DNA of 64,000 bases from an uncultured bacterium (GCA_905479655.1 CAJQNK010000121.1:14732-78731), one strand, 5' to 3'; shown: positions 27,463 through 59,792, counted from the first letter of the stretch. Notes: generated from the letters alone by a model not told the origin. A program made the numbers and translations.

Positions 27463-27587
27463 TTCGACGCGACGACACCCGGTGAGAAGGTCAGGCTAGT
27501 CCCGCTCCGGAAATTCCATACCCCCATCTCGGCCCCTTCTCCACCTACGGCCCCTCGCTACGACAACCGGTGAGAAAGGCAGGCTAG
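27463..27587 (+). repeat. Two nested right-end fragments of the MITE (each ending in GGTGAGAARGnCAGGCTAG)
   Basis: 27481-27499 GGTGAGAAGGTCAGGCTAG and 27569-27587 GGTGAGAAAGGCAGGCTAG, each preceded by sequence matching the inner right arm of copy A (cacctacggcc.ctcgc.acgaca.ccc). Confidence 0.6.
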
Positions 27588-27766
27588 CCTGACCTTCTCA
27601 CCGGATGTCGTTGCGAGAGGCCGTAGGTGCCTGGAGATGCAAGGCTTGCGACCGAGGGCGACGCAGTCGTACTGTTTGTACGTCGAGGAGCCCGAGCGGA
27701 GCGTAACGTCGCAGATTCAGGTACATACGGTCTCGTAGTAGACAGTTGGTGAGAAGGTCAGGCTAG
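27584..27766 (-). mobile_element. MITE-like element, copy B (183 bp, inverted relative to copy A); its terminal CTAG supplies the stop codon of the HEAT/pseudocaspase gene
   Basis: The reverse complement of 27584..27766 aligns with 13403..13585 with only a handful of mismatches. TIRs CTAGCCTGACCTTCTCACC / GGTGAGAAGGTCAGGCTAG. Confidence 0.75.
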
Positions 27767-30372
27767 TACTTCGACTGACTGCGGCGCCGCGGAGGCAGGG
27801 CCTCGACACCCCGGTTCAGGGCCTGGATCGCGGCCTCCTGGACCTCCGGTGACGGGTCGCCCTTGGCCATCCTCTCCAGGATGCCCCGGACCTCGTCGGT
27901 GTCGGCGAAGGGGCCGAGGGAGAGGGCGGCGAGCCGCCGCACCGAGGGAGCCGGGTCCCGGGCGGCCTCCAGGAGAGCGCCGACGGCCTCCGGGGCGATC
28001 CGCCTCCCCAGGGCTCGGACGGCGTCGGAGCGGACGGCGCTCGAGGGGTCGCGGGCCGCGGTGGCCAGGGCCTCGACGGCCAGGTCGTTGCCGCCCCGGT
28101 GGATCTCTCCGAGCACCTCGGCTGCGCTCCGGCGCGCGACCGGCTCCGCATCCGGCGTCAGGAGCACCTCGGCGACCCGCTCGGCCACCTGGGGATCGTC
28201 CGCGCTCTCGACGAGGCTGTCGACCGCTTCGGCCCGCGCGGTCGGGTCGGGGTCGCCCAGCCCCCGCAGCAGCACGGCCAGGGTCCGCTCGTCCAGGTAG
28301 GCGGCGCTCTTCTGGTAGGTGAGGCCCCGGAGGTAGTCCGACTTCTCCCGCACCTCGTCGGGGGCGGCCTCCTGGGCCAGCAGGGACGGGTCGAAGTCCC
28401 GACTCTCGAGCTGACGCCGGGCCTCGGCGCGGACGTAGGGATCCTCGTCGTCCGCGCGGGCCGAGAGGGCCTCGATCGCCGCCGGGGTACCGATCGCTCC
28501 CAGGGCCGAGACGGCCGCCCGCCGCAGTCCCACGGTCGCTCCCGCGGCAGCCTTCGCCGTCAGCTCCGGCACGGCGGAGGCGGCCCCCAGTTGGCCGAGG
28601 GCCTCGACGGTGGCCACCGCGACCTCCTCCGGAGGATCCGCCAGGAGGAGGTCGCGCAGCAGCGCTTCGGCCTCGGGGCCGCCGAGCCGCCCCAGGGAGG
28701 TGGCGGCCGCGGCGGCGACGGCCGGCCGATCGTCCCCGGTGGCGGCGGTCAGGACCTCGAGCACCACGTCGCGGGCCTCCTCGACGTAGACCCGGCCGAG
28801 GCTCAGAGCCGCGAGCTGGCGAACGTCGGGGTTGGGGTCGGTCAGGACCCGCTGGGCGAGGGCCTCGCTCGCCGCCGCCGACGGACCGAGGCGGCCCACC
28901 GCCGCCGTGGCCTCGCGTCGCACCTCTTCGTCCGGGTGCTCGAGGGAGTCCACGAACACGTCGCGGTCCTCCTGACGGCCGAGGGCGGAGAGCTCCTGGA
29001 GGGCGGCCAGGATCACGGTCGAGGTCTCGCCGTTGCGCCCGACGACGGCGCGCAGGAGCGCCGCGGTCTCCGGGTGTCCCGACACCGCGAGCGAGCGCAC
29101 CGCCGCCCAGCGGACGGACGGGTCCGGGTCCCCCAGCGCGGCGCGCAGGGCGGAGCGGTCCTCGGTTCGGGGGCTCTCGAACCGCGCGATGCGCCCCAGG
29201 GCGCGATTCCGCACGACGGCGGGGACGGTCGCCCCGGCGGCGACCTCCACGAGGGCGTCGCGGGCCGCGGTGGACTCCAGCTGTCCGAGGACCTCGATCG
29301 CCCAGGAGCGCATGCGAACCGCCTCGGGCCCCTCGAGGGCGACCCTCGGAAGGCCGGCTTCCGGGTCCAGGGCGATCTCTCGCAGCAACGCGACGAGGCC
29401 GGGATTGGCGCCCGGCTCCGCGGCGGCGAGGGCGGAGATCCGCTCCATGGTGAGCTGGGCGGACTCGAACGAGATGGCGCCGCGCCACTCGTGCCGGAGG
29501 GCGTCCGGCTCGGCCGTCGCCAGCAACCGGAACTCCGGCGCGGAGCGGGGCACCGTCAGGACGGCGAGGTCGAAGGTCCCGGGACCCTGGACCGCGGAGT
29601 GGGCGAGCGCCGTCGCCGCGGCCTCCCCGGCACCCCCGACCGCCTCGCTGCGGAGCGCCCGGGCCAGGGAGCGGGCGAAGGCGTCGCTGCCCCACAGACC
29701 GGACGCGCCGTCGGGCCTCCGCTCCCGGCGCTCCCTCTCCAGGTCGCAGACCAGGAAGGCGGTCACGGGCGCGCGTCGGCCCTCCTCCTCGAGGCGCTGC
29801 AGCATGGGATGGCGCGATACGAGGGTCCACCAGGCCTTCAGGTCGTCGCCGGCCTTCGACCGCACGCCGTACGGCAGCCGCTGACCGCAGGCCGGCAGGG
29901 TCAGGAGCACCTCCACCGCCGGGATCTCGCCCAGCCAGCTCCCGATCTCCTCGTCGGAGAGCAGGGTCCAGGGGCTCTCGCGGTCGCCGTCGGCCGGGAC
30001 GAAGCGGAGTCCGCGCCCGGTCTCCACCGGCAGGTTGAGATAGAGAACCAACTGGTCACCCGGGCTCGCCTGTCTCAGGAGCTCCCCGAGCGAGCGCGTC
30101 AACGCGCCGCGCGTCGCCTGTCTCGGCCCGAGGTAGGTGACATCGAAGCCGTAGGCGTCCTCGAGGGTCGCGGCCAGGCTCGCACCGCCGTCGCCGGCGC
30201 CGTCCGCGACCAGGGCCAGGTGCGCTCCGGGGGTCTGGGCCGACGGTTCCGAAGCCCTGGCCGTGTCCCGTGGGAGGAGCGCGAGGGCCGCCGGGAGGGC
30301 CAACGCCAGGATCAGCGCTCGGCGGAGGCGGCCGGCGCGACGGTGGGGCGTCACGATGCCGTGGGCTCTCAT
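27763..30372 (-). CDS. Secreted HEAT-repeat (PBS-lyase type) protein with an N-terminal caspase-like domain lacking the catalytic His (pseudocaspase)
   Basis: Signal peptide (ALILALALPAALALL). Caspase-like fold positions 'QLVLYLNLPVETGRG' (His replaced) and 'VLLTLPACGQR' (Cys kept). More than 10 HEAT repeats of the type 'DPDPSVRWAAVRSLAVSG' / 'DPNPDVRQLAALSLG'. Confidence 0.7.
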   Translation of the reverse strand: MRAHGIVTPHRRAGRLRRALILALALPAALALLPRDTARASEPSAQTPGAHLALVADGAGDGGASLAATLEDAYGFDVTYLGPRQATRGALTRSLGELLRQASPGDQLVLYLNLPVETGRGLRFVPADGDRESPWTLLSDEEIGSWLGEIPAVEVLLTLPACGQRLPYGVRSKAGDDLKAWWTLVSRHPMLQRLEEEGRRAPVTAFLVCDLERERRERRPDGASGLWGSDAFARSLARALRSEAVGGAGEAAATALAHSAVQGPGTFDLAVLTVPRSAPEFRLLATAEPDALRHEWRGAISFESAQLTMERISALAAAEPGANPGLVALLREIALDPEAGLPRVALEGPEAVRMRSWAIEVLGQLESTAARDALVEVAAGATVPAVVRNRALGRIARFESPRTEDRSALRAALGDPDPSVRWAAVRSLAVSGHPETAALLRAVVGRNGETSTVILAALQELSALGRQEDRDVFVDSLEHPDEEVRREATAAVGRLGPSAAASEALAQRVLTDPNPDVRQLAALSLGRVYVEEARDVVLEVLTAATGDDRPAVAAAAATSLGRLGGPEAEALLRDLLLADPPEEVAVATVEALGQLGAASAVPELTAKAAAGATVGLRRAAVSALGAIGTPAAIEALSARADDEDPYVRAEARRQLESRDFDPSLLAQEAAPDEVREKSDYLRGLTYQKSAAYLDERTLAVLLRGLGDPDPTARAEAVDSLVESADDPQVAERVAEVLLTPDAEPVARRSAAEVLGEIHRGGNDLAVEALATAARDPSSAVRSDAVRALGRRIAPEAVGALLEAARDPAPSVRRLAALSLGPFADTDEVRGILERMAKGDPSPEVQEAAIQALNRGVEALPPRRRSQSKY

Positions 30373-31559
30373 GGGCAGATCTCCCCCCAGTTGGCCGCCG
30401 TCGTCTCGGGTCGCAGGAGACACAGTTTCGAGACCAGGATCTCGGCCTTGACCTCGCCCGGCAGGCTCGCTCCCAGCTCGAAGAGTGTCTGGAGCTCCTC
30501 GACGATCTGCCGGTCGGTGGCCGACGGCTCGGCTCCCAGGGCCGACGCCTGCTCCCAGTCGTGGAGGGCGACGAAGCAGGCGTTGCGGACCTTCGGGTCG
30601 AGACCGGCCTGGAACTCCAGCTCGAGCAGCAGGCTCCGCAGCTCGGCCAGCGCCGGCCCCTGCACGTCCAGCAGGCCCAGGGAGAGGAGGTTGGTGCCCC
30701 GGACGATCTCGATCGGCGACTGGACGATCTGCCGGTCGGCGGTGAGCTGCGCGAGGAGGATCTTGGTCTTGCCGATGATCTCGCTCACCGACAGCTTGCC
30801 GTCGCCGTTCGCGTCGGCTGCGGGGTCGCGGAGCGTCTGGAGCAGGCTGTAGGTGAAGATGCCGTGACCCAGCTCCGGAAACTCGTAGGCCTCGGCCCGC
30901 GCGGCGCCGAGAACCACGAGGCCCGAACCGATCTGCTCCTCCACCGTCCGTTCGAAGCTCGCCTCGGGGAAGGCGTGGCGGGTGAGCCGCACGTCGCCCT
31001 CTCCGGCGCGGCTCGTGCCCGTGCCCGAGACCACGCTCTCGACGTCCCCGCTGTGGCAGTGGTCGAGGATCAGGACCTTGCGGTCCGCCGGGATGTCGCG
31101 CAGGTACTCCATCAGGTGGCTCAGGCGGATGCCGTCCACCGCGAGCTCGGCGATCGACGCGGTATGAGTGAGCCAGTAGGTGTGCTCGCCGGCGGTCAGG
31201 TCCTGCACCCCGTGGCCGGCGAAGTAGATCAGCACGGTGTCCTGTTGCCGGGCCCTTCTCGCCATTCGCACCAGCTCGCGGACGATGCGCCTGCGGGTCG
31301 CCTCGTCGTCGATCGCCGTCGCCACCTCCCAGCCCTGGTCCTCGAGGAGCTCCGCCATCTGCCGCGCGTCCGGTACCGCGAAGTCGAGCTCCGGCACGCC
31401 CTCGAGCTCCGCGAGGTAGGTGTTGATGCCGATGACCAGCGCGTAGCGCACCGGCGTCAGGTCCTCGGGTTGGGCCCGGACCCCGCTCGTGACGCCGCCG
31501 CCGACCAGGGCGATCGCGACGCCCCAGCGGGCGAGAGCGGAGAGGCGCCCTCGGCTCAC
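30369..31559 (-). CDS. Secreted caspase-domain (peptidase C14, orthocaspase-like) protein; GTG start at 31559
   Basis: Signal peptide (LSALARWGVAIALVGGGVTSGVRAQ). Catalytic dyad motifs 'VLIYFAGHGVQ' and 'VLILDHCHSGD'. 4-bp overlaps with both neighbouring genes. Confidence 0.8.
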   Translation of the reverse strand: MSRGRLSALARWGVAIALVGGGVTSGVRAQPEDLTPVRYALVIGINTYLAELEGVPELDFAVPDARQMAELLEDQGWEVATAIDDEATRRRIVRELVRMARRARQQDTVLIYFAGHGVQDLTAGEHTYWLTHTASIAELAVDGIRLSHLMEYLRDIPADRKVLILDHCHSGDVESVVSGTGTSRAGEGDVRLTRHAFPEASFERTVEEQIGSGLVVLGAARAEAYEFPELGHGIFTYSLLQTLRDPAADANGDGKLSVSEIIGKTKILLAQLTADRQIVQSPIEIVRGTNLLSLGLLDVQGPALAELRSLLLELEFQAGLDPKVRNACFVALHDWEQASALGAEPSATDRQIVEELQTLFELGASLPGEVKAEILVSKLCLLRPETTAANWGEICP

Positions 31560-34500
31560 GGGAGGGACGCCCGGAGGTCGGAGGAGAGGTCGCGCGAGCG
31601 GAGCCGTTCGCGGATCTCCTCCCAGGAGTCCGCGCTCCGGTTCAGCCCCGCGACGACGGCGTCGAAGGTGGCGGCCAGGAGCTCGTCGGTGGCGTAATGG
31701 TAGGCCACCTCCGCCTCGTAGACCGCCACCTCCTCGAGGTCGGTGCCTTCGTCGAGTCCGAAGAGGAGTCGGTAGTCGGCCTCCGCCGCGTCGCCGGCGG
31801 GACCCGGAGGGTAGAGCGAGCGCCACAGGGGCAGATCCACGATCGACTCGGCGTCGCGGGCGGCGCCGCGCGAGACGGCGACCGCGGGCAGTGGCGCCTC
31901 CAGGAGCCGCGCGGCGTCCAGGATGCCCGCGCCGTAGCGCTCCTCGTCCCAGGTCGCGTCGTCGCCGCAGTCCGCGCTCGCGGGGACTTTGTCCCCCCCC
32001 GGCTGCCAGGCCGTCTCGCGGGCCAGGAGCCGGAACGCGCGGGTCAGCTCGCCGGCGTCGCGCAGGACCTCGAAGTCCGGGTCGCCCCGGTGGCGGGCGA
32101 ACCAGAGGGCGGCGACGCCCGCCGTGGAGGAGGTCGCGTAGGTGGTCCCCGTTCCCATCCCCGTGACCCAGTCGTCCCCGTCGATAGTCGCTCGCCAGAC
32201 CGACTCGCCGGTGGCGGCGAAGTCCACCGCCGAGCCCCGGGAGCTATGGGCCCACGGCCGGCAGCCCACGTTGACCGCGGCCACGGCGATCACCGAGTCG
32301 AAGCGCGCCGGCCAGACGACGGTGCGCACGTAGTTGCCGGCGGCCGCGATGATCAGGTAGCCGCGCCGCTCGGCCGTCCGGACGGCCTTCCACAGCCGCC
32401 AGCTCGGCACCCCGCCCATGGCGATCGAGGCCAGGTCGGTGGCGACGCCGACCCGGGAGCGGTCGTCGCCCGCGAGGTCGAGGATGGCCTGGCTCATCCG
32501 CTCGGTGCTGAAGTTGATCACCGAGCTGTTGACCCGCAAGGGCACCAGCCGGGCGCCCCGCGCGACACCGGTGGGGCACTGCCTCTCGCCGTCCTCGTCA
32601 TCGAGCTGACAGCCGCTGGGCGAGACGATGGCGCTGCCGCTCCCGGTACCGTGGGCCGGGTTGTCCAGCGGCCGGTGCTTCACCCGCTCGTCCAGGGGGT
32701 CCTTGCGGTCGCGGGAGTAGTCCCAGCCGACCTCGACCCAGAGGGGGTCGTCGCCCGCGGGGTCGAGCAGCTCGGGGTGCGGCAGGTAGCCGGTGTCGGG
32801 GTGGGCGACGACCACACCCGCGGCCTCGGCGCCCTCCACGGCGCCGTGGGCGCGCAGAGCGGCCCAGGCCTCGGGCACCCGCAGGGTGCGGTGGCTCCAG
32901 AGGACGTCCGCGGCCGCCCGCTCGTCGTCGCCGGCGCCACCCGATCCGCGGGAGCCGGCGGCGTTCGGGTCGGGCGCGCTCTGCGAGCGGGGAATCGCGG
33001 CCTCCAGGACCGGCTCGGCGCGCCGGGCGCCCCACCTCTCCCGCTCGCGGTAGGCCTCCTGGAAGGCGCGTCCGACCGAGATCTCGCCGGCGTTCCCGGA
33101 CCGTTCGGCCGCGGTGCTCAGGACGACGACGGTGGAGTCGCCCGTGCCGGATGCCGCCGCGTCTCGGGCGCCACCGGCCGAGCGCACGCTCTCGGCGGCC
33201 GCCCGGGCCGCCGCCGGGTCGTCGAAGTGGAGGGCCACCCCCTCGCTGGCGACCTCGGACCGGTCGACGCGCACGGCCCGATGGACGACGGCCCAGTCGT
33301 CGACGACGACCGGCGCGCCGTGGCGGGTGAGGCCCTGGGCGGAGAGCCGCAGGAAGCGACCGAGCGCGTCCTCGTCGCCCCGGGTCTCCGGCACCGCCCC
33401 CCGTGCCGCCGGAGGGAGCGCGAAGAAGCCCGGGTCGAGCTCCCGGGTCGCGGCGATCATCTTGTACCGGTCGGTCGAGCTCGCCAGCTCGGGCGGCAGG
33501 AACGTCCTCACGAACACGGTGTCGCTACGGCCGGGCGCGATGGCCTCCCGGACCTGGCCCTGGGGGTAGACGAGCTGGTCGCCGCCGTCGGACCAGAGTC
33601 CCACCACCACCGCCCAGACCTCCCGGTCGGAGCGGTTGGTCAACGTGAGCTGGAGCCGGGTCCCGGGGGTCACGCTCTCCGGCACGGGCTCGCCGTCGGG
33701 ATCGTCGGCGAGGGAGATCTCCAGGTCGACGTCCAGGGCCGAGGCGGGGTTGCCGAGATTGAGCAACGCGTGCCAGCGACCCCAACGGGCGAGCTGCGCC
33801 TCCAGCTGTTCCAGAGCGTCGGGGTGCGCCGCGGGGACGTCCCCGAGGATGTCGAGGTCACGTCCCTCGAGGAGGTAGCGGTCGCCTTCGCGGCGTACCC
33901 GGATCTGCGCATCGACCCGCTCCGCCACCCGCTCCATCGACTCGAAGCCGTCCACGACGGCCTTCAGCGGCTCCAGGCCCGGGTCGTCGCCGACGTGGAC
34001 CGTGACCCGGTCGACCCTCGGGACGATCTCGTCGAGGACGGCCCGGGTGTGGGGTCCGACCGTGCCCTCGAGCACCTCGACCTCGGACTCGAAGGCCGCC
34101 GCCGAGACGACGCGCACGGTGGCGACCGCCGGCACGGAGCCGTCGAACTCGCGGGTGCCCTGCGGAAAGACCCGCAGCTCGGAGCCCGGCGCCACGCCGT
34201 AGGCCCGTCCCGCCGACAGGGTGGCCCGCTCCGTGCCGTCGCCCACCGGCTGGACCGGCACGAAGGCCCGGGGCCGTGCCACCTCCACGCCGAACAGCTC
34301 CTGGTCGATCCCGGTGCCTTCGATCTGGGGCGTCTGCGAGGGGAAGCGCTGGGAGACGTCGGAGCGCACCGGCTCCATGACGTCACGGTAGGTCGCGCCC
34401 GGCGACGCCTTCTGCAGCGCCCGGGCCAGGAACCAGGTCATGGCGCCGTGGCGGCGATCGTCGAACCGCGTCTCGTTCGAGAGCTGGTTGGCGCGACACC

Positions 34501-35179
34501 CCGAGATCAGGACGTAGCCGGCGCCCAGCGCGCGGAAGTCGTCCGGCCCCTCCACCGCGCGGCCCGCCCCGGGGTCCGGCGGCGGTGGCGGGCGCAGGTC
34601 CGGCGGTACCTGGCGCGGCACGGTGCCCGCCTCGGCCGCCCGCGCGGCGCTGCCGGAGTGACAGGAGTCGAGGATGAAGGTCACGTGGGGCGTCTTGGCG
34701 GCCAGCTCGGCCATGAGCCGGTTGATCTCGTCGTCGCGCAGGTCGCGCACGTCGCCTACCCGGGAGTCGTGGGGGACCAGGCTCTCGTCCCAGCCGTCGG
34801 GCTCGTCGCCCGAGTCGTCGAGCATCTGGGAGCCGTGCCCGCTGTAGTGGAGGACGACGACGTCGCCCGCCTCGGTCGGCTCGATGAGGCTCGTGCGGAT
34901 CGCGTCGAGGATGCCCTGCCGGGTCGCCTCGGCGTCGCGCAGGACGCGGACGTTCTCCGGTGGGAAGTCGAAGTCCCCCACCAGGACCGTCCGCATGAGC
35001 TCGACGTCGTTACCGCAGCCGCGCAGGTCCGAGAGTCCGGGCGCGAGGTAGTCGTCGATGCCGATCAGCAAGGCCCGGCGGGCGGCGCCCGCCGCCGGGG
35101 CCAGAGCGAGGAACAGGAGGAGGGTGGTGGCCGCTGCCAGCGCGGTCGGCAGGACGGCGGGTCGGGCTCCCTGGGTCAT
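31556..35179 (-). CDS. Secreted caspase (C14) - subtilisin-like (S8) protease fusion protein
   Basis: Signal peptide. N-terminal caspase motifs 'VVLHYSGHGSQ' and 'FILDSCHSGS'. C-terminal S8 motifs 'HGTGSGSAIVS' (His box) and 'GTGTTYATSSTAGVAAL' (Ser box). Confidence 0.8.
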   Translation of the reverse strand: MTQGARPAVLPTALAAATTLLLFLALAPAAGAARRALLIGIDDYLAPGLSDLRGCGNDVELMRTVLVGDFDFPPENVRVLRDAEATRQGILDAIRTSLIEPTEAGDVVVLHYSGHGSQMLDDSGDEPDGWDESLVPHDSRVGDVRDLRDDEINRLMAELAAKTPHVTFILDSCHSGSAARAAEAGTVPRQVPPDLRPPPPPDPGAGRAVEGPDDFRALGAGYVLISGCRANQLSNETRFDDRRHGAMTWFLARALQKASPGATYRDVMEPVRSDVSQRFPSQTPQIEGTGIDQELFGVEVARPRAFVPVQPVGDGTERATLSAGRAYGVAPGSELRVFPQGTREFDGSVPAVATVRVVSAAAFESEVEVLEGTVGPHTRAVLDEIVPRVDRVTVHVGDDPGLEPLKAVVDGFESMERVAERVDAQIRVRREGDRYLLEGRDLDILGDVPAAHPDALEQLEAQLARWGRWHALLNLGNPASALDVDLEISLADDPDGEPVPESVTPGTRLQLTLTNRSDREVWAVVVGLWSDGGDQLVYPQGQVREAIAPGRSDTVFVRTFLPPELASSTDRYKMIAATRELDPGFFALPPAARGAVPETRGDEDALGRFLRLSAQGLTRHGAPVVVDDWAVVHRAVRVDRSEVASEGVALHFDDPAAARAAAESVRSAGGARDAAASGTGDSTVVVLSTAAERSGNAGEISVGRAFQEAYRERERWGARRAEPVLEAAIPRSQSAPDPNAAGSRGSGGAGDDERAAADVLWSHRTLRVPEAWAALRAHGAVEGAEAAGVVVAHPDTGYLPHPELLDPAGDDPLWVEVGWDYSRDRKDPLDERVKHRPLDNPAHGTGSGSAIVSPSGCQLDDEDGERQCPTGVARGARLVPLRVNSSVINFSTERMSQAILDLAGDDRSRVGVATDLASIAMGGVPSWRLWKAVRTAERRGYLIIAAAGNYVRTVVWPARFDSVIAVAAVNVGCRPWAHSSRGSAVDFAATGESVWRATIDGDDWVTGMGTGTTYATSSTAGVAALWFARHRGDPDFEVLRDAGELTRAFRLLARETAWQPGGDKVPASADCGDDATWDEERYGAGILDAARLLEAPLPAVAVSRGAARDAESIVDLPLWRSLYPPGPAGDAAEADYRLLFGLDEGTDLEEVAVYEAEVAYHYATDELLAATFDAVVAGLNRSADSWEEIRERLRSRDLSSDLRASLP

Positions 35180-35402
35180 CGGCCTCCTCCCTTCGCCCCG
35201 GGGGCCAGGAAACGGAGACGGCCGGCGTCCCCCGAGCTCCGGCCGGAGCTCCGTCGGTTACGCCGGGCCGCTCGGTACGCGGGCACCTCGGCTCATGGAC
35301 AGGCGGACGGAACCGGCCAATCGTTTCAAACCGTCTTCGTCGATCCTACCGCTCGCCGCCCCATGGCCACAAGCGACGCCGTACGGTACGGACGGGTTCG
35401 GC

Positions 35403-37178
35403 TCAGACGGTGATCGTCTCGCCCGAGAACGTCGTGAGCGAGAAGCCGGCGAAGCTCTCCTGGTAGATCGCTCTCTCCTCGCGCAGGAGGCGCAGCGCGA
35501 TGGCCTCTCCGAGGAGGTTCCCCTCCCGGTCGTCGGAGCGCCAGTGGATCCCCGACATGTCCCGGCCCCACGTGAGGTTGTAGGCCAGCTTGTTGAGCTC
35601 GCCGCCGAGTGTCAGCTCCGGTCCGTCGACCCCCGTGATGTAGTCGACCAGCGCGGAGCCGTCGGGCGTCGGCTTCTTGGGCGACGGGAACGGCAACGAC
35701 TCGTCGAACCACGCCTTGAGCACCGTGACGCAGGCGCCCGCGGTGACGGCGTGGCCGGCCGGGAACGACGGATGGGTGGGGCAGCCGACCGGGAAGAGCT
35801 GGGGCAACATCCAGGAGCCGTTGTTGATGCTCAGGCGGGCGTTGTTGATGAGCAGGTTGCGGTCGAAAATGGAACCGAGCGTGATCGTGGCGTTCAACAG
35901 GTCCGAGTGGATCGGATGGCTGACCATGCCGGCGAGCGTCGCGTGCACCCGCGCGGCGTACTCCTCCGGGCGGAGGAACCGGTGGACGAACCACTTCTCG
36001 TACCAGCAGGAGCGCTCGGCCTTGTGGGCCTTGCCCAGAAGCTCGGCCAGGTGGGCGGCGCCGAAAGTCCCGAATCCGAGTTGCCGGCCGGAGTTCTGGT
36101 AGGGGTTGGCCTGATCGTAGCCGGACGCTCCGACCAACTGGTTGAGAATCAGGAAGGCCTTGAAGTAGGCCGAGAAGACCATGTCGCGTCCCGCGACGAA
36201 GCCGAGGGCTCGGGGGTCCGTGACGTAGCGGGACTTCGCCCGGCCCGGCGGCGGAGCCGGAGTGCCCCCCGGGAACCCCCGCTGGGACTCGAGCCACTCG
36301 TCGAAGGTGGTCAGGAAGTCGAACTCCCGCTTGCCCACGGTGACGCGCTGGCCGACCGGCGCCCCGTCGTAGCTGAACCCCTGGAGCAGGAACTGGGAGA
36401 CGAGATAGCCGTCCTGTACGCCCGGGTACTCGACGCGGAAGAGGTCGTTGGCGCGGATCTCGCCGGTCACCGGGTCCCGCGGGCCCCGGTAGCCGGAGAA
36501 CGTGGCCAGCTGCTCGCGGGCCTTGACGGCATCGGGGTGGGCCTCGAAGTCCTGGAAGTTGATGTCGCGCAGGATGGCCATCCAGTAGAGCTCGGCCATC
36601 TCGGCCGCGAGCTCGGCCGAGGCGAAGGCGGGCGGCGGGTTGGCGACGCCGATCGCCGGTGAGTCGGGTCCGTCGATGGAGTAGGCCAGGCCGCCGACGG
36701 GGTTCGCCAGACGCGACCCGCCGCCGGCCGGGACGGTCTCGAAGGCCTCGAACGTCCCGGCGGTGACGGCGGCCAGCAGAGCGTCGTAGGCCGCGGGGTC
36801 GACCTGTCCGAGGTCGTCGTGGGGCAGCGTCTTCGAGAAGTTGCCGATCCGGTTGGAGTAGAGCTCCTCGTCGCCGTTGGTCGCGTGCAGGGGCTCGGGC
36901 AGCGCGAGCTCGGCGTCGGCCGCCGCCACGCGGATGGCGTGGGCCTCGAGCTTACGGTCCTGGAGGTTCGCTCCGTGCGGCGGCGCGGGGGCGGTCGACC
37001 TCGGCGCCGCGGCTGCCGGCAGTCGGCCCGCGATCGCCCCGAGAGAGGCGGCGCCGAGCCCGCCGAGAAGACCCCGGCGGCTCAGTTCCGAGTGCTTGTG
37101 GGCCTCGCGACGAGGGTCGATCGACTTCGCATCGTCAGGGTGCGCCAAAGAACGGATGGGCAGATTCGAGTCCTTCAT
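35403..37178 (-). CDS. Tat-secreted vanadium-dependent haloperoxidase-like protein (PAP2 superfamily)
   Basis: Tat motif 'SRRGLLGGLGAASLGAIAG'. 'KWFVHRFLRPEE', 'CPTHPSFPAGHAVTAG', 'RDMSGIHWRSDD' (R-x5-H-x3-D). Confidence 0.8.
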   Translation of the reverse strand: MKDSNLPIRSLAHPDDAKSIDPRREAHKHSELSRRGLLGGLGAASLGAIAGRLPAAAAPRSTAPAPPHGANLQDRKLEAHAIRVAAADAELALPEPLHATNGDEELYSNRIGNFSKTLPHDDLGQVDPAAYDALLAAVTAGTFEAFETVPAGGGSRLANPVGGLAYSIDGPDSPAIGVANPPPAFASAELAAEMAELYWMAILRDINFQDFEAHPDAVKAREQLATFSGYRGPRDPVTGEIRANDLFRVEYPGVQDGYLVSQFLLQGFSYDGAPVGQRVTVGKREFDFLTTFDEWLESQRGFPGGTPAPPPGRAKSRYVTDPRALGFVAGRDMVFSAYFKAFLILNQLVGASGYDQANPYQNSGRQLGFGTFGAAHLAELLGKAHKAERSCWYEKWFVHRFLRPEEYAARVHATLAGMVSHPIHSDLLNATITLGSIFDRNLLINNARLSINNGSWMLPQLFPVGCPTHPSFPAGHAVTAGACVTVLKAWFDESLPFPSPKKPTPDGSALVDYITGVDGPELTLGGELNKLAYNLTWGRDMSGIHWRSDDREGNLLGEAIALRLLREERAIYQESFAGFSLTTFSGETITV

Positions 37179-37417
37179 GGAAGCCTACCTCCAGGTAGGG
37201 GGGATGGAGCGCCACAGGCCACCGCGCTCCGAGCACGAGAAAGGAATCAAGAAATACGTAGAAAATGATATCAGAAAGGAGAGCGTTCGGGGTCCCCTCG
37301 TTGCGGGCGACCGCCGGAGCAGTTCGGTTCCTGTCCGATGCCGCGGAATCCGGAGGCGGAGGGGCAAGGAGATCGAGCGGCGGAGCGTAGGCCCGGCGCC
37401 GGAACGGCGGTGGGTCT

Positions 37418-39553
37418 CTACGAACCGGGCGCGGTCGCCGCGAGCGCGCGCAGGAGCTCCGGGAGCTCGCCGGCGTCCTGGAAGCGGTCTTCGGGGCGCT
37501 TCGCGAGGAGGCGGCCCAGCGCCTCGTCCAGCCCGGGCGGCGCAGGCTGCCCACCGGGCAGGCGGAGTGGCGTCGGGTCGTCGTGGAGGACCTGGTAGAG
37601 GATGGCGTAGCGGCCCGGGCCCGAGAACGGCAGGTCCCCGGAGAGCATCTGGTAGAGCAGGACTCCCAGGGACCAGAGGTCGCTGGTCGGGGCCGCTACG
37701 CGCCCCCGGATCTGTTCGGGAGACATGTAGGCCGGGGTCCCGAGGCTCGCGTCGGCTTGTGTGATGCGGGACTCCTCCGCCATGAGCGCCAAACCGAAGT
37801 CGACGATGACGGGCCGGTCCTCCGACCGGAGGATGATGTTCGACGGCTTGATGTCCCGATGGACGATGCCGGCGCGGTGCGCCGCGTCCAGCGCCTCGGC
37901 GATCCGCGCGGCGATGGTCAGCGCACGGCCGGCGGGCAGGGGGCCGCCCTCCAGCACCTTGTTGAGGTCCCGGCCCTCGTAGTACGGGATCACCAGGAAC
38001 ATCCGACCGTCGGCCGTCTCTCCCAGGTCGTGGATGGCGCAGAGCCCCGGATGACCCAGGCGCGAGGCGGCCATCGCCTCCCGCAGCAGGCGGGTCCGCG
38101 CGAGCTCGTCCGGGGCGGGGGTGGGGGCCAGGAATTTGAGGGCGACGGTGCGCTGGAGGTGGAGGTCGCGCGCCAGGAAGACCTCGCCCATGCCGCCTCC
38201 GCCGAGGCGCTCGACGATTTCGTAGCGCGAGAGGCTTCGGCCCAGGATGGTGCCGGAAGGCGCCGACGCCGGCATCGGCGGCCGCTCCACGACGGCGGTC
38301 GGTTCCAGGAAGTCGTCCGCGCTCGCGTGGTGCTGCAGGAGCGACGAGACGAGCCGGTGGAGATCCGGGTCGTCCCCGCACTCGGTCGCCAGGAAGTCGT
38401 CGACCTGGGAGGGCTCCCGCCGGAGGGCCTCGCCGAAGGTCTCGCGCGCCTTGTCCCACAGGCGCCGCTCGGTCGAGGAGTCGGTTGGGGAGGGTGCCGC
38501 CGGGCCGCCTCGTTGGCGGAGGAAGTCCCGGAGGAAGCGGTGGCTCACGGCCAGAGTGCCGTCCTCCAGGCGCCGCAGGAGGCCCAGCGCCTCGAGCCTC
38601 CGGGGGCCCGCGCCGAATCCCTCCCCCGCGCCCCCTCGGGGGTCGTGGGTGAGTCTCTCCTCCTCTTGCTCCGAGAGTGGCCTCCCGCCGCGCGAGAGCT
38701 CGACCAGGAGCTCGCGCTCGCTCTCGGCGAGCAGGTCGAAGTCCACCGTGAACAGGTACTGAACCATCGGCTCGCTGTCCACCGCCTCGATGGCCTTCGA
38801 CAGGTCACCCAACTGCGAGAGCCGCTTCGCCAGGAGCTGGAGGAGATAGGGATGGCCGGCGCAGACGTCCGCCACCTCTTCGGCGAGCTCGGCGGACCAG
38901 TCCGGGCGGTCGCGGGCTCGCCGAGTCTGGAGGACGCACTCGACGGCGGCGACTCGTTCCAGCCCCGCGAGGTAGACGGGGGGGCCGAAGCCGTGGAGGA
39001 AGGGGGAGGTGGCGCTCCGCTGGTGGCGCAGCTCCCACAGCCGCACGGTCGAGGCCATGACGGTCCGGAGGTGGGAGCCTCCATGGATCAGCTTGCGGAG
39101 CTTCGGGAGCAGGCCGGCCTCGCGCTGCGAGACCTCGAGCAGGACCTCCGGCTCATCGATCAGCAGGAGCAACCGCCGATCCAGCCGGGCGACCTGCCGG
39201 GTCAGCCGGCGGAGGCAGTGGAACAGGTCGTCGTCGAGAACGTCGTCGATGCCGATCCCGAGCTCCGCCAGGTCTTCCTCCGCGTCCAGCAGCGCCTCGC
39301 GGACCTCCTGGTGGAGATCGGCCAGGTCGGTCGCGCCCTCCAGGTTCCAGAACAGCGGCAGATAGGGGAGACCGGGACGCTGCCGGGCGAGGTGCTCGAG
39401 CTGGCGCAGGAAGGAGGTCTTGCCGATCCGGCGCGAGCCCAGGACCCAGACCGCGTCGCTCATGTCCTCCATCGTCTCCGCCAGCTCGGCGTCCCGACCG
39501 TAGAAGGACTCCCCCCGGACCCACTGCCCGACGACGAACGGTGACGGGCTCAC
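37418..39553 (-). CDS. STAND/AAA_16-type ATPase fused to a C-terminal Ser/Thr protein kinase; GTG start at 39553 overlapping the upstream stop
   Basis: 'FYGRDAELAE...VLGSRRIGKTSFL' (Walker A), 'LLLIDEPE' (Walker B). Kinase 'RYEIVERLGGGGMGEVFLA...ALK', 'HRDIKPSNIIL', 'DFG', 'GTPAYMSPE'. Confidence 0.8.
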   Translation of the reverse strand: MSPSPFVVGQWVRGESFYGRDAELAETMEDMSDAVWVLGSRRIGKTSFLRQLEHLARQRPGLPYLPLFWNLEGATDLADLHQEVREALLDAEEDLAELGIGIDDVLDDDLFHCLRRLTRQVARLDRRLLLLIDEPEVLLEVSQREAGLLPKLRKLIHGGSHLRTVMASTVRLWELRHQRSATSPFLHGFGPPVYLAGLERVAAVECVLQTRRARDRPDWSAELAEEVADVCAGHPYLLQLLAKRLSQLGDLSKAIEAVDSEPMVQYLFTVDFDLLAESERELLVELSRGGRPLSEQEEERLTHDPRGGAGEGFGAGPRRLEALGLLRRLEDGTLAVSHRFLRDFLRQRGGPAAPSPTDSSTERRLWDKARETFGEALRREPSQVDDFLATECGDDPDLHRLVSSLLQHHASADDFLEPTAVVERPPMPASAPSGTILGRSLSRYEIVERLGGGGMGEVFLARDLHLQRTVALKFLAPTPAPDELARTRLLREAMAASRLGHPGLCAIHDLGETADGRMFLVIPYYEGRDLNKVLEGGPLPAGRALTIAARIAEALDAAHRAGIVHRDIKPSNIILRSEDRPVIVDFGLALMAEESRITQADASLGTPAYMSPEQIRGRVAAPTSDLWSLGVLLYQMLSGDLPFSGPGRYAILYQVLHDDPTPLRLPGGQPAPPGLDEALGRLLAKRPEDRFQDAGELPELLRALAATAPGS

Positions 39554-42060
39554 GCCTCGCCCCCGCCCGGCTCGCGCCGGACGGCCTCCAGGTCCTCGAT
39601 CGTTAGCACGCGGCGTCCGAGGCGGTGGCCGCGGTCGACCAGGGCGCGGCACAGACGCTGGATCTCGTAGGGGCGGCCCGAGGTCGCCTCGACGATCCTC
39701 TGCACCACCCGATCATCGACGCGGAAGAGCCCGCGCATCGGCTGGCGGACCAGTCTCTCAGCCTCCGATGCCGGCAGCGGCCGGACCGCGATCCCCTCGA
39801 AGAAGTTGAACCACGGGCTCCCCTCGAGCTCCCAGTCGCGTCGGATCTCGACGCCGGAGACGATCGCTCGCAGGCGTTGCGCGAAGGAGCGCATGAAGAG
39901 GGCGCGGAGCTTCTGGTTGATCCGCGGGTCGTAGCCGTTGAGCTCGTCGATCTCGTCGATGAGCAGGACCAGCCGGGGCTCGCGGTCGGACCGTTCGTCC
40001 AGGCGGCGGAGGACCGCTCGGAGGTCGGTGACGAGGTCCGTGTGGCCGTACCCCGGGTCCGAGGGCGGGTGGCACGGCGCCAGCCCCTCGAGCGTCGGGC
40101 CGAGCTGGTGGAAGACCTCCGCCGCCAGGGTGGCGAAGAGCCGCTCCCCCGGCGTCCCCTGCAGGTCCACGTAGACCGGATGGAAAAGGTACTCTGGATC
40201 GTCGATCTCCCGGAGCCGCTCCCGCAGGTGGTGCTGGATCGAGGTCTTGCCGATCCTCCTCTCCCCGTGGAGCAGGAGACTGTTGTTCGGCACCGCGGCC
40301 ACCACCTCCCGGATCAGATCCTCGCGACCGAAGAACTGCTCGCGGCCGAAGACCGGGGCTCCCGCGACGTACGGGTTGGGCCGGCGAGCCAGCGCCCGCG
40401 CCTCCCGCCGGCGACGAACGGCCAGGCCGAGACCCCCGGTCGCGAGCGAGAGGACGAGGACGCCGCCGAGGATCCAGGGCCGGCGCCACGGCGGGGCGCG
40501 GTACAGGAAGGAGTACTCGGAGACCGCCTCCAGGTCTCCGTCGTCGGCCGCCACGATGCGGTAGGTGGACGCTCCGGCGGCGAGTTCCACGTCGAGGTGG
40601 AACTGGGCGACGAAGACGTCCCCGTGCTGGTCCCCACGGGAGGCCACGGGGACCGGTTCGCCGCGCGGGTCCAGGGCGGACAGTCGCACGGGGCCCTCGT
40701 CGATCACCACGCCGACGATCCGCTCGGCGGGGTGGTCGACGACCTGCCGGACCGAGCCGTCCTCCATCGCCGCGCGGAGGTCGGTGAAGCGGATCGCCGG
40801 CGGCAGGTTGCCGTCGCCTCCCCCGTGGCGCACGAGCCTTCGGGCGATGCCGCGGTACGCGGTGGCGAGCTGGGCGATGGCCCGGGTGTCGTCCGGGTCG
40901 ATGGCCAGAGCGAGATTCACCGCGGCGAGCGCCGCGTCGTGGTCACCCGCGGCGAGCGCGACGGCGGCGGAGTCGACGAGGCGGTCGAGCTCGACCCGGC
41001 GCATCGCCGTCTGCCGTCGCTCGCTCTCCGCCTCCACCAGGGATCGACGCAGCGCAACGGCCTCCTCGTGATCCGGCTCGACCGCCAGGATGCCGCGCAG
41101 GAGATCCAGGGCCGCCGCCGGGCGCCCGTCCCGCGCGGCCGAGCGCGCGGCGTCGAGCCGATCCTCGATCATCGGAGCCGGGTCGGCCGCGGTCGCCTCG
41201 GGTCGATCGTCCCTTCGCTCGGCCGAGATCGCCTCGAGGGCTGTCGCCAGGGGGCCCTCGACGTCGGCTCGGGGGTCGAGAGCCCGGGCCTGCTCGAAAG
41301 CCGCAGCGGCCTCTCGGGGCTTCCCCTCGTCCAGCAGACGACGGCCGTCCCGCGCGAGCTCCGCGGCGGTATCGATGCGCTGCCTCTCGAGCTGTTCCGC
41401 GGCCAGGAGGTCGCGGAGCTCGGTCTCGAGCGCGACGGCGCCGGCGTCCGCTGGTTCGAGCGCGAGGACGTCCGCGAGCTCCGTCAGGGCCTCTTCCACC
41501 CGCCCCTGGTCGCGCAGCGATCGGACCCGGGCCAGGACCTCGGCGGTGATCTCTTCACCCACCTTCCGCTGCGCGCTCTCGATCTCCCGGATGCGCTCCC
41601 GGGCGCGCCCGCGGAACCGCTCGAGCTGCGCCAGGTCCGGCGGGGAGGAGGCGATGGCGCCGAGCCGCTCCTCGGTCTCGAACGCCCGGAGCGCGGCCGC
41701 CGGATCGTCCAGCTCCAGGTAGGCGATACCGAGCTTCAGGTAGGGAAAGTAGGAGGTGAACTGCATTCCGTAGGTCCGCGCGTTCGCGCTGGAGTCGCCC
41801 TTGCGCGCGACCGCCTCGTTGAGCTCTTCGACGGCACCCTCCCACTCCTCCCGCCCGAGTTTCTGCTTCGCTCGCTGGTAGTGGACGTACCAGGTGTCGG
41901 CGGCCGACGGTTGAGACAGGCCCAGGAGGAGCGCGGCGACGAGGGTGAGGAGCGTCCCCCACGACCGACGCCGGGCGCGGCCCCCGGGTCGCGGCCGACC
42001 GAGGCGGACGCCGTACTCGGCTCCCTCTGGGTCGGCGTCGTGTCGCGAGCGGCGGCTCAT
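39550..42060 (-). CDS. Membrane-anchored protein: signal peptide + periplasmic TPR repeats + TM segment + cytoplasmic STAND/AAA_16-type ATPase
   Basis: Signal peptide (LLTLVAALLLGLSQPSAA). TPR-like repeats. TM segment 'ILGGVLVLSLATGGLGLAV'. 'FFGREDLIREV...LLHGERRIGKTS' (Walker A), 'LVLLIDEIDE' (Walker B). Paralogous to the ATPase domain of the downstream kinase gene. Confidence 0.75.
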   Translation of the reverse strand: MSRRSRHDADPEGAEYGVRLGRPRPGGRARRRSWGTLLTLVAALLLGLSQPSAADTWYVHYQRAKQKLGREEWEGAVEELNEAVARKGDSSANARTYGMQFTSYFPYLKLGIAYLELDDPAAALRAFETEERLGAIASSPPDLAQLERFRGRARERIREIESAQRKVGEEITAEVLARVRSLRDQGRVEEALTELADVLALEPADAGAVALETELRDLLAAEQLERQRIDTAAELARDGRRLLDEGKPREAAAAFEQARALDPRADVEGPLATALEAISAERRDDRPEATAADPAPMIEDRLDAARSAARDGRPAAALDLLRGILAVEPDHEEAVALRRSLVEAESERRQTAMRRVELDRLVDSAAVALAAGDHDAALAAVNLALAIDPDDTRAIAQLATAYRGIARRLVRHGGGDGNLPPAIRFTDLRAAMEDGSVRQVVDHPAERIVGVVIDEGPVRLSALDPRGEPVPVASRGDQHGDVFVAQFHLDVELAAGASTYRIVAADDGDLEAVSEYSFLYRAPPWRRPWILGGVLVLSLATGGLGLAVRRRREARALARRPNPYVAGAPVFGREQFFGREDLIREVVAAVPNNSLLLHGERRIGKTSIQHHLRERLREIDDPEYLFHPVYVDLQGTPGERLFATLAAEVFHQLGPTLEGLAPCHPPSDPGYGHTDLVTDLRAVLRRLDERSDREPRLVLLIDEIDELNGYDPRINQKLRALFMRSFAQRLRAIVSGVEIRRDWELEGSPWFNFFEGIAVRPLPASEAERLVRQPMRGLFRVDDRVVQRIVEATSGRPYEIQRLCRALVDRGHRLGRRVLTIEDLEAVRREPGGGEA

Positions 42061-42329
42061 TCGGTGGTTCCGTCGGCCCGACGGTCCTCCCCGTCGGCAT
42101 CGGGTTCGCAGGGGGCCGAGTCGTCTTCCGGCCAGGGGTGAATCCCGTCGTCCGCGCGGCCGTGGGGTAAGTTGACAGCGGTTCGGCCCCCGCATATTCT
42201 CACCGCACTTCGAAGTTTGTCATCTGATTCGAGCCGGGACCCGAAGTCCGGCCCTCCTCCGATCCGCCAGGTTGGGAAGGTCCAGCACGGCCGCGTCGCT
42301 CTCGGCGCCGTCGACCCGGCGGAGACGGA

Positions 42330-44429: not shown

Positions 44430-44703
44430 GGCGAACGAGGAGATCCCCCGGCGCGGCGCGCAGGGGCTCGGCCTCGAGAGTGCCGCCACCCGGAACCCGC
44501 CATCCGCGTCTCGAGGGGGCCGATCTGTGCGAGCGATCGTGAGAGTATAGAGGCGGAACCGACACCGAAACCGTCGGGGCGGGTGTCCTTTGGCGAGGGC
44601 TTCTCCGAGAGCCGCGAAGGATCCACCGGTTCGGCGCATCCAATCCGTAGAGGGGCGACCAGCACCCGGCGATCGGCCGTCACGCGGAGCCCCGGGAGAG
44701 ACC

Positions 44704-46406: not shown

Positions 46407-46469
46407 CTCGGCCGGCGTCGGCGAGCGTCGCTTCCGTCGGACCTCCCGCCGTGGGGACCCCCCCCTCGG

Positions 46470-49193: not shown

Positions 49194-49483
49194 CGCGCAG
49201 CCCCCAGGCAGGGAATCGACGGTCTCGGTGGGCGAGAGAGTACCAGCCCGTTCCGGCGGCGGCGATCGCTCCGGGGCGGGGTGTCGGGCTCCTGGCCCGC
49301 GTCGTGCGACGCTCGCAGCCGTTTGGGTCTACCCGCTCGCGGTCCGCCAACTCCGCCCTGTTCCATCCGGGGTCGTCGCCTGTCTCACCCGACGACAGGA
49401 GGCCGCCGAGGCGTCGACCCCCGGCCGGGGGCGGCGCGGCCCGGCCCGACATCCACCCCATACCCACCCGAGGAGAATCGTCC

Positions 49484-59645: not shown

Positions 59646-59667
59646 GTTATCTATGTACCAAGATAAC
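59646..59667. promoter_or_regulatory. AT-rich palindromic operator candidate GTTATCT-N8-AGATAAC in front of the minus-strand two-gene operon
   Basis: Perfect 7-bp inverted repeat in a locally AT-rich patch (rare in this genome), 25-50 bp upstream of the likely start codon. Confidence 0.4.
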
Positions 59668-59792
59668 ACACCTGCGGCAAGAGGCCCGGCCACCGAGGCC
59701 GACGTCCATCCGGTCCATCCCGTCCATCTCCGTCCAGCTCGACCCGACCCCTCCACGCCGCCCACGGGCCGGCGCTCGCCCCGGAGGGGGCT

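Follow-up and report, generated by a model that had tools for sequence, protein, structure and literature searches.

Bacterial homologs of caspases are mostly discussed as cytoplasmic proteases of cell death and defence. In a survey from 2012, N-terminal membrane helices or signal peptides were found in a minority of prokaryotic metacaspases, together with one NACHT-HEAT_PBS-caspase protein (PMC3501461); the text of this survey contains neither 'Peptidase_S8' nor 'subtilase' and names no architecture combining peptidase families C14 and S8. Pseudo-orthocaspases, in which Tyr and Ser replace His and Cys, have been linked to photosynthetic organisms (PMC6426788). In clostridial germination, CspB is reported to be active and CspA and CspC to be pseudoproteases (PMC3567191, PMC7200643). 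Conflict systems with NTP-dependent sensors and caspase effectors are reported from bacteria with complex lifestyles (PMC7159879, PMC8195603, PMC12642450). Here we analyse a locus of six genes, A to F, in a stretch of 64,000 nucleotides from an uncultured bacterium (GCA_905479655.1, CAJQNK010000121.1:14732-78731), which as a whole is called the window. A and B are predicted to encode a sensor-like nucleoside triphosphatase (NTPase) and a paralogous NTPase fused to a Ser/Thr kinase, C a vanadium haloperoxidase-like enzyme, and D, E and F a caspase-subtilase fusion, a caspase and a pseudocaspase with HEAT repeats. We consider it likely that this 14-kb stretch consists of three independently conserved modules lying side by side and not of one system, because A-B (with a neighbouring gene for an outer-membrane protein), C and D-E-F were never found together elsewhere.

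A first-pass annotation of the window had proposed that ATPase and kinase sensors of the STAND type (signal transduction ATPases with numerous domains) and a haloperoxidase are coupled to the three caspase-domain proteins. We compared gene neighbourhoods anchored on three of the genes; L-numbers denote loci from genomes and metagenomes gathered for this comparison. With D as anchor, one genome per species from 185,579 species yielded 77 loci with up to 10 kb on each side, which were examined by tblastn with all window proteins and, in 25 of them, by all-against-all clustering of open reading frames (ORFs). Homologs of A, of the B ATPase, of C or of the outer-membrane protein were present within 10 kb in none of the 77, and the ORF clustering agreed with the tblastn result. 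With C as anchor, a metagenome scan using an alignment of the closest homologs gave 80 loci (26 of at least 12 kb), none of them with A, the B ATPase, the S8 domain of D, E or F. With A as anchor, the six neighbourhoods inspected (L083, L085, L166, L167, L168, L169) contained neither the haloperoxidase C nor the caspases D, E or F. The proposed coupling of sensors and haloperoxidase to caspases was thus seen in 0/77 D, 0/80 C and 0/6 A loci, and as a block the six genes were never syntenic outside the window. Synteny did hold for parts of it: D-E-F recurs, and A-B recurs within the Acidobacteriota together with an outer-membrane gene that lies beyond the limits first drawn for the locus.

All six genes lie on the minus strand, with the domains first assigned to them, between position 27763 (the stop of F) and position 42060 (the start of A; Table 1). 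The coordinates and gene structure given in the first-pass annotation were correct, with overlaps of 4 bp, gaps of 239 bp or less and products identical to public proteins, and its domain calls were all borne out, by Pfam searches of the six proteins (with matches below the gathering threshold for the ATPase of B), for C by a match to the structure 1QI9 and for F by a profile-profile comparison. Because the window has a G+C content of 72%, long ORFs occur on both strands, and G+C at the codon positions was used to tell true genes from shadow ORFs: third-position G+C was 0.85-0.95 in the six minus-strand ORFs (27763-42195) versus 0.67-0.83 in plus-strand shadow ORFs. Start codons were set from the gene junctions. 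With the starts chosen, all six products are exact entries in a public protein collection, from one NCBI/ENA contig of 87,073 bp. The GTG start of B overlaps the stop of A (GTGA), the GTG start of E overlaps the stop of D (GTGA) and the ATG start of F overlaps the stop of E (ATGA), each by 4 bp, and C is set off by 239 bp from B and by 223 bp from D. That six genes run in the same direction is by itself not unusual. The 4-bp overlaps are the sole direct sign of coupling, and they join only A to B and D to E and F.

Gene structure, domains, catalytic residues, synteny and export-type N-termini are reported here as direct observations. Export signals were assessed for all six proteins from hydropathy and inspection of motifs only. 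N-termini resembling signal peptides (basic, then hydrophobic, with small residues at the end) were seen in A, D, E and F, and no export signal was seen in B. No transcription factor is encoded in the locus. None of the six proteins matched a curated family of PADLOC or NCBIfam above its cut-off; the matches below cut-off were generic and at the level of domains (kinase, caspase, HEAT), and A and C had no match in PADLOC at all.

Table 1. Features of the six-gene locus and its borders, in window coordinates.
Feature	Coordinates	Strand	Length	Content	Basis
Outer-membrane protein gene	42172..43806	+		FadL/Toluene_X-like outer-membrane protein, divergent from A; beyond the limits first drawn	Toluene_X 8.2e-5, below gathering threshold
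Gene A	39550..42060	-	836 aa	Signal-peptide-like N-terminus, TPR region of ~480 aa, membrane helix 528-549, STAND-like P-loop NTPase	Pfam and hydropathy
Gene B	37418..39553	-	711 aa	NTPase paralogous to that of A, Hanks-type Ser/Thr kinase	Pfam, identity to A
B-C intergenic region	37179..37417	-	239 bp	AT-richer stretch just upstream of C (ctttctgatatcattttctacgtatttcttgattcctttc)	
Gene C	35403..37178	-	591 aa	Vanadium-dependent haloperoxidase family enzyme with predicted Tat signal	1QI9 match
Gene D	31556..35179	-	1207 aa	Predicted signal peptide, caspase domain (H115, C173), beta-sandwich/Ig-like domains, I9-like unit, S8 domain, helical C-terminal region	
Thr1013 codon (ACC) of D	32141..32143	-		Position of the catalytic Ser of subtilases	
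Gene E	30369..31559	-	396 aa	Predicted signal peptide, caspase domain (H116, C168), helical C-terminal region of ~130 aa	
Gene F	27763..30372	-	869 aa	Predicted signal peptide, pseudocaspase domain ~50-300, HEAT-repeat array	
Near-perfect palindrome	27542..27629		88 nt	Convergent gap between F and a glycosyltransferase gene; 44-nt arms, 89% complementary	

Outside the window, D, E and F were found adjacent and co-directional in 11 other loci (L003, L004, L007, L015, L018, L019, L023, L030, L034, L080, L081). Four are from Acidobacteriota (L003, L015, L023, L034) and five from Gammaproteobacteria (L004, L007, L018, L019, L030), where L018 belongs to the cultured species Pseudomarimonas salicorniae CAU 1642; on the metagenome contigs L080 and L081/L082 the genes are annotated as C14+S8, C14 and HEAT_2, again with a 4-bp overlap of E and F. 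The flanking genes vary wholly by lineage and include polyketide-type genes, CHAT, an M4 peptidase with an endonuclease, an M48 peptidase, cytochrome c and transporters. In two more loci (L009, L011) the D homolog is directly preceded by genes for an active caspase resembling E and for a protein of the caspase fold that lacks both dyad residues, in another gene order and with a different pseudocaspase than in D-E-F. These two loci argue that two active and one inactive caspase-fold proteins form a recurrent composition and not the quirk of a single lineage. The grouping of D, E and F, which the first-pass annotation had embedded in a larger block, therefore stands on its own as a unit of two caspases predicted to be active and one presumably inactive relative that recurs in other phyla. 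Our literature search, which covered subscription journals thinly and is weak evidence in this respect, found no published description of D-E-F under C14+S8 fusions, periplasmic metacaspases or Thr-subtilases, and the Pfam names of C14 and S8 searched together returned nothing relevant. Judged by sequence, D-E-F would be a conserved and previously undescribed cassette of three exported caspase-fold proteins within the bacterial caspase-homolog operons.

In the wider family related to D, caspase-fold proteases usually come in twos or in larger sets. L021, for instance, has three or four C14 paralogs, and L008 encodes CHAT-TPR proteins. In about 25 loci a CHAT gene, often with TPRs, lies immediately upstream of shorter D relatives that consist of caspase plus middle domain (for example L081 7507-8949; L008 6298-9549 and 15412-18957; L054, L057, L065, L067, L075 and L078 at ~8.5-9.1 kb); the window has no such gene. 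The window also lacks the PD40 beta-propeller protein (~560-890 aa) that stands beside D-E-F in three of the four other loci from Acidobacteriota (L015 7280-9205, L023 5869-8529, L034 8372-9628) and was seen as well in a locus from Rhodobiaceae (L010 16536-18257).

Protein D has more than 60 full-length relatives with C14+S8, at identities of 35-52%. Its Peptidase_C14 match has an E-value of 4.5e-29 (102.2 bits, gathering threshold 21.4) and its Peptidase_S8 match one of 9.4e-14 (51.8 bits, threshold 21.8), and phmmer aligned the S8 domain with subtilisins at about 1e-9. In alignments of 29 and 63 homologs Cys173 of the caspase dyad is invariant and His115 is conserved in at least 90%; by this dyad the caspase domain is predicted to be active. 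In the S8 domain, Asp795 (HPDTG), His843 (HGT) and the oxyanion residue Asn949 (AAAGN) are invariant. Thr1013 aligns with Ser221 of subtilisin, and the motif G-T-T is invariant in 63/63 aligned full-length homologs. The domain has the S8 fold and profile and carries Thr for Ser in place of the classical Asp-His-Ser triad. Since Thr is a poor stand-in for Ser in classical triads, the S8 module would be an unusual protease with a Thr nucleophile or else a pseudo-protease with an otherwise retained active site.

AlphaFold models of D were built with alignments of 95 and 63 sequences and reached a predicted local distance difference test (pLDDT) of 88.5 for residues 292-790 and of 85.8 for the mature protein, with a predicted template modelling (pTM) score of 0.85. 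The models contain the caspase domain, and in the numbering of the mature protein a low-confidence loop at ~141-190 follows the catalytic Cys, and caspases carry an intersubunit linker at this position. A beta-alpha-beta-beta-alpha-beta unit (597-696) and a disordered linker (700-717, corresponding to ~732-749 of the precursor) precede a subtilisin fold, which Foldseek recovered with an E-value of 1e-16 and a target TM-score of ~0.8. The unit 597-696 appears to be similar to an I9 propeptide, a reading taken from its secondary-structure string and not from a fold search. The C-terminal region is helical in the model. The middle region consists of immunoglobulin (Ig)-like folds, which are typical of extracellular proteins.

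In E, the Peptidase_C14 match (3e-21, 76.6 bits, gathering threshold 21.4) includes the dyad H116 and C168, and both residues as well as the motifs YFAGHGV and LDHC.SG are invariant in 11 homologs, all of which have signal-peptide-like N-termini. By its dyad E is predicted to be an active caspase. Protein F has a strong HEAT_2 match in six stretches (1.9e-59), whereas the nature of its N-terminal part had to be derived from a comparison of families. Pfam gives no caspase match in the N-terminal 300 residues of F, and across the F family C14 is detected in 1/11 N-termini only, at E 0.025. The N-terminal domain had no match at E<=1e-3 in a database of 5.8 billion proteins. Pairwise BLASTP of the N-terminus found no match to E and a weak, in-register match to D (E 0.044). 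Ten F homologs from related loci were therefore combined with F into a profile, and hhalign aligned this F-family profile with that of the E family at a probability of 98% (E 2.4e-13). With the signal peptides trimmed, the match remained at 96.7% (E 3.4e-10, 187 columns), and five column-shuffled controls gave E-values of 0.19-0.85. The early call of a pseudocaspase in F is upheld by this match, the shuffled controls being far weaker. The catalytic His of E aligns with Pro in F, in a column that is variable across 11 homologs, while Cys162, the equivalent of the catalytic Cys, and C209, the sole other Cys, are both invariant in the 11. By its sequence F is a caspase-fold protein with half the dyad gone, because the His position is Pro or variable while Cys162 is kept. 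Cys162 might form a disulfide or still act as a nucleophile. Hydrophobic N-termini are kept across the F homologs as across those of E, and 9/10 F homologs start with a 4-bp overlap on the stop of E.

The conserved translational coupling of D, E and F argues for the co-production of subunits, and their export-type N-termini together with folds of the extracellular type argue that they act outside the cytoplasm. In our best model, D-E-F would form an extracytoplasmic (periplasmic or extracellular) proteolytic complex or a short cascade. The HEAT solenoid of F would then serve as a scaffold or substrate adaptor, and its pseudocaspase domain might pair with E or with the caspase domain of D. Inactive caspase paralogs are known to regulate active ones. 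The pro-subtilase-like module of D might be freed or regulated by a cut in the linker, made by one of the caspases or by D itself. Localisation, complex formation, cleavage order and substrates are what we infer for D-E-F in this model.

Outside the window, A-B pairs were confined to Acidobacteriota, often with a gene for a FadL-like outer-membrane protein as neighbour. Protein A (identical public entry P0121) matches TPR_2, AAA_22 and AAA_16 in Pfam, the latter with 33.9 bits at a gathering threshold of 32.6, and among the precomputed Pfam domains of its homologs are ATPase_2, nSTAND1, nSTAND6 and NACHT. By inspection it has a Walker A motif (GERRIGKTS), a Walker B motif (LVLLIDE) and a GxP-like motif (SGRPYEIQ). 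Its single membrane helix (528-549) is followed by a run of arginines, from which the TPRs are predicted to lie outside the cytoplasm and the NTPase inside. We found 58 orthologs of A at 40-46% identity, and all named ones are from Acidobacteriota. Together with the best relatives of D-E-F, they suggest that the window itself is from this phylum. Protein B is, by profile (Pkinase 1.6e-42, 146.2 bits) and by the motifs found on inspection (the VALK Lys, HRDIKPSN, DFG, SPE), a Hanks-type Ser/Thr kinase. Its NTPase region has matches of the AAA_16, AAA_22 and nSTAND (nSTAND1) kind that are all below threshold, and the NTPase domains of A and B are 30% identical over 264 residues (E 8e-10). Profile support for a STAND assignment is thus barely over threshold in A (AAA_16) and below it in B, with Walker motifs present by inspection. 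Neither protein has the canonical STAND order with C-terminal cytoplasmic sensor repeats: in A the TPRs are N-terminal and a membrane helix precedes the NTPase, and in B a kinase, not sensor repeats, follows the NTPase. The only canonical STAND protein in the window lies ~17 kb from the locus, where an ORF of at least 1444 aa (59667-63998, plus strand, running past the window end) with SIR2_2 (4e-17), NACHT (5.7e-8) and FGE-sulfatase (3.3e-44) matches has the typical look of a conflict or defence protein resembling nucleotide-binding leucine-rich repeat (NLR) proteins.

A 4-bp overlap of A with its partner was seen in L083, L167 and L168, in all three of which the partner is a B homolog (NTPase plus Pkinase), and in L169. 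The partner in L166 is a B-type NTPase without kinase, and in L085 fragments similar to B lie a few kb from the A homolog. In L169 (12409-14961) the partner is an 850-aa protein in which a B-type NTPase (by tblastn) and Pkinase are joined to a sigma-70 domain of the extracytoplasmic function (ECF) type, a fusion through which the kinase would act directly on transcription. The A homolog of L083 overlaps at its start with a gene for an FHA-GAF histidine kinase. Homologs of the outer-membrane protein (32-35% identity) adjoin A homologs in L083 and L169, the latter with two copies, and lie ~4 kb off in L085; Pfam Toluene_X matches are found among them. The window protein itself also has weak N-terminal similarity to PorV/PorQ, and it probably belongs with A-B. 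The FadL-like protein would sit in the outer membrane, and A and B might act as an envelope-signalling module of Acidobacteriota: a periplasmic cue would shift the oligomeric state of the NTPase of A, which would then recruit the NTPase of B and so turn on the kinase. Such a mechanism, from a periplasmic TPR sensor through paralogous NTPases to a cytoplasmic kinase, fits the observations, and the ECF sigma fusion in L169 and the FHA-GAF histidine kinase in L083 among the partners fit an output in signalling. Just past the FadL-like gene (44590-49328), genes for an ECF sigma factor and a FecR-like anti-sigma protein are accompanied on the other strand by one for a TonB-dependent receptor with CarboxypepD_reg, together a classical set for trans-envelope signalling beside the A-B module.

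Protein C has a weak PAP2 match only in Pfam. Against solved structures it matched the Ascophyllum vanadium bromoperoxidase 1QI9 over residues 66-589 with an E-value of 2.3e-85, and 5AA6 with 1.1e-79. The vanadate-site residues K395, R403, H469, G475-H476, R539 and H545 are invariant in 17 homologs, and Ala takes the place of Ser in the S-G-H motif, in C as in the consensus of its close homologs. A Tat (twin-arginine translocation) motif, SRRGLLGG, is found in SRRGLLGGLGAASLGAIAG with a hydrophobic stretch after it, and R34-R35 are nearly invariant in the homologs; by this motif C is predicted to be Tat-exported. The family is very large, with 930 clusters at E<=1e-30 among representatives at 50% identity. 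The AT-richer stretch upstream of C could be its own promoter; a consensus scan of the B-C gap gave no sigma-70 match and no terminator. Probably C is a stand-alone, ordinary haloperoxidase with a Tat signal whose position next to D is incidental. One candidate for a second linkage of C and D, with a CHAT-TPR gene and a related short caspase gene upstream (L165), was rejected as incidental because a gene for pyruvate dehydrogenase E1 separates the caspase from the haloperoxidase. Two ENA metagenome contigs of ~2.4 kb (L001, L002) carry the end of B and the whole of C at 100% amino-acid identity, which points to the same organism or strain in several samples. A second protein of the PAP2 superfamily (464 aa, PAP2 1.6e-12) is encoded ~29 kb from C (5377-6771, minus strand).

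Peroxidases of another kind stand near genes of the D family. We noted a block with a gene for an animal-haem peroxidase (Pfam 1.5e-62 and 8.7e-69), three genes without Pfam match and a DyP-like peroxidase, located downstream in L011 (13851-22376), upstream in L017 (223-8856, Desulfocapsa) and on both sides in L020 (4436-8701 and 15542-18919). It thus occurs near D-family genes in Gammaproteobacteria and Desulfocapsa, with a weak match in L027. The presence of the block in three arrangements suggests a functional link between peroxidases and caspases.

The transcription signals of the locus are sparse. A scan for consensus terminators found no minus-strand site between A and F, which in a genome of 72% GC gives no verdict on co-transcription. 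No sigma-70 match was found upstream of C or D, and within 27-43 kb sigma-70-like promoter matches were restricted to the divergent intergenic region between A and the outer-membrane protein gene. The palindrome downstream of F (27542-27629) has an RNA folding energy of -80 kcal/mol (z = -10.4) and occurs only once in the window; it could be the 3' boundary of the D-E-F transcription unit, a bidirectional terminator or a small palindromic element. An Rfam scan of 27-44 kb returned no RNA families.

How do these results bear on other explanations of the locus? The model originally put forward, in which C, D, E and F form an exported cascade under the control of sensor A and kinase B, draws on six co-directional genes with short gaps, on the absence of terminator-like sites between them with promoter-like matches only upstream of A, and on the consideration that exported proteases need regulation, for which a trans-membrane sensor is plausible. 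It is nevertheless distinctly unlikely. Its parts occur together in 0/77 D, 0/80 C and 0/6 A loci, loci from at least two phyla carry D-E-F and lack A-B, A-B stands apart from caspases throughout the Acidobacteriota, B is cytoplasmic while its supposed targets are exported and no transcription factor is encoded in the locus, and the divergent outer-membrane protein is the better-supported partner of A-B. A cascade of sensor, kinase and caspases read from adjacent genes hence fails the test of synteny. Somewhat less improbable, though still rather unlikely, is a unit formed by C and D-E-F with A-B apart. Its members would share an extracytoplasmic target, for example in oxidative or halogenative cross-linking combined with proteolysis that matures or remodels proteins of the envelope or matrix. 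C lies immediately upstream of D in the same direction, and the haem-peroxidase block beside D-family genes in L011, L017 and L020 varies in arrangement while the linkage stays. Haem and vanadium haloperoxidases are unrelated and share hypohalous-acid chemistry, and the adjacency of C and D might be the pairing with haem peroxidases rebuilt with a non-homologous enzyme. Yet a vanadium haloperoxidase is present in 0/11 other D-E-F loci, the S8 domain of D, E or F in 0/80 haloperoxidase loci (L165 has pyruvate dehydrogenase E1 in between), C is flanked by gaps of 223-239 bp on both sides and comes from a very large independent family, and the three strong peroxidase cases are one homologous block (its peroxidases 63-67% identical to that of L011) that could be a mobile island.

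For D-E-F alone, two further explanations have to be weighed. A cytoplasmic module of anti-phage defence or programmed death, similar to the defence systems with caspase effectors, is highly improbable. E scores 99.5 and D 60.6 bits against the NCBIfam model 'caspase, EACC1-associated type' with a cut-off of 140, the PADLOC 'caspase' match is likewise sub-threshold, and no curated defence model was matched over its cut-off; CHAT genes and multiple caspase paralogs in related loci do resemble the neighbourhoods of conflict systems described in PMC7159879. However, D, E, F and their homologs have signal-peptide-like N-termini, the middle of D consists of Ig folds of the extracellular type, and the trio has no conserved partner of the kinds expected there, be it a sensor NTPase, an effector-associated adaptor domain, a nuclease or a pore-forming protein. 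That D-E-F are secreted degradative proteases of a nutritional function has only a slim chance. In three loci from closely related Gammaproteobacteria (L004, L030, L081) genes for two hydrolases of typically secreted kinds, an M4 metallopeptidase and a non-specific endonuclease, come after the trio, and D has a subtilase domain. These neighbours are limited to one lineage, though, narrow specificity is usual for enzymes of the caspase family, and a coupled pseudo-enzyme with HEAT repeats and an invariant Thr in place of an efficient Ser fit regulated processing better. The reading as three modules has its own weak points. The evidence on the A family comes from six neighbourhoods only, the loci used for synteny leave out relatives from the same genus or family as this organism, and with no terminator or internal promoter match seen, all six genes may be co-transcribed by read-through. 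The haem-peroxidase blocks beside D-family genes in L011, L017 and L020 are a reminder that C may not be an innocent bystander. The export signals were judged by eye and hydropathy, the Thr nucleophile in an otherwise classical triad may mean that the S8 domain of D is inactive, and the complex or cascade of D-E-F is a model that we infer. A more elaborate version, which we hold to be doubtful, would be an extracytoplasmic caspase machine, a regulated cascade of proteolysis in the bacterial envelope. In it the two active caspases would assemble with a pseudocaspase that has kept only its Cys and is carried by a HEAT scaffold, and together they would control a pro-subtilase with a Thr nucleophile; in some lineages exported (halo)peroxidases would take part, namely haem peroxidases in L011, L017 and L020 and the vanadium enzyme C in the window.

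Of the three modules, it is the D-E-F cassette that stands out as unusual. Its export signals across phyla suggest that proteases of the caspase type work in the periplasm or beyond the cell. As such it would be a tractable case for the control of active paralogs by a pseudo-caspase outside eukaryotes, and it could show whether a natural Asp-His-Thr subtilase is catalytic. The cassette is experimentally accessible in the cultured host Pseudomarimonas salicorniae CAU 1642 (L018).

Compared with described systems, the three modules have different closest relatives. C is similar over nearly its full length to the solved vanadium haloperoxidases 1QI9, 5AA6, 1QHB and 5LPC and keeps the Lys/Arg/His/Arg/His residues of the vanadate site; it differs from them in being bacterial, in its Tat signal and in the Ala that replaces the motif Ser, and its haloperoxidase activity is predicted. 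The outer-membrane protein, A and B are reminiscent of FecA-FecR-FecI, where a beta-barrel, a single-pass sensor with a periplasmic domain and a cytoplasmic regulator act in a comparable arrangement. There is no homology between the two sets, and here the sensor would be a TPR and P-loop NTPase protein and the output a Hanks kinase. The NTP-dependent conflict and caspase-effector systems (PMC7159879, PMC8195603, PMC12642450) likewise combine STAND NTPases, caspase or CHAT domains, kinases and TPR or HEAT repeats. They are cytoplasmic, with sensor NTPase and protease fused or strictly linked, whereas the corresponding genes of our locus are unlinked in other genomes and the caspases carry export signals; a keyword reading of PMC7159879 gave no cassette similar to D-E-F.

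With the orthocaspases and other metacaspase-like proteins of MEROPS family C14, D and E share the C14 domain with its His-Cys dyad, and F is a dyad-defective paralog. By profile and dyad D and E are members of this peptidase family, and their proteolytic activity is predicted. In contrast to the pseudo-orthocaspases (PMC6426788), F lacks only the His of the dyad, its Cys being invariant, and has HEAT repeats in the same protein. The clostridial Csp proteins resemble D-E-F in having active and dead paralogous proteases, a fusion protein, a cascade outside the cytoplasm and a subtilase with a retained prodomain. They are unlike D-E-F in that all of them are subtilases and belong to the spores of Firmicutes, while here the paralogs have the caspase fold and a subtilase is found only in D. 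With homology confined to the S8 domain, the Csp system would be the closest functional analogy to D-E-F, an analogy of logic only: dead and active relatives of one protease family acting together outside the cytoplasm.

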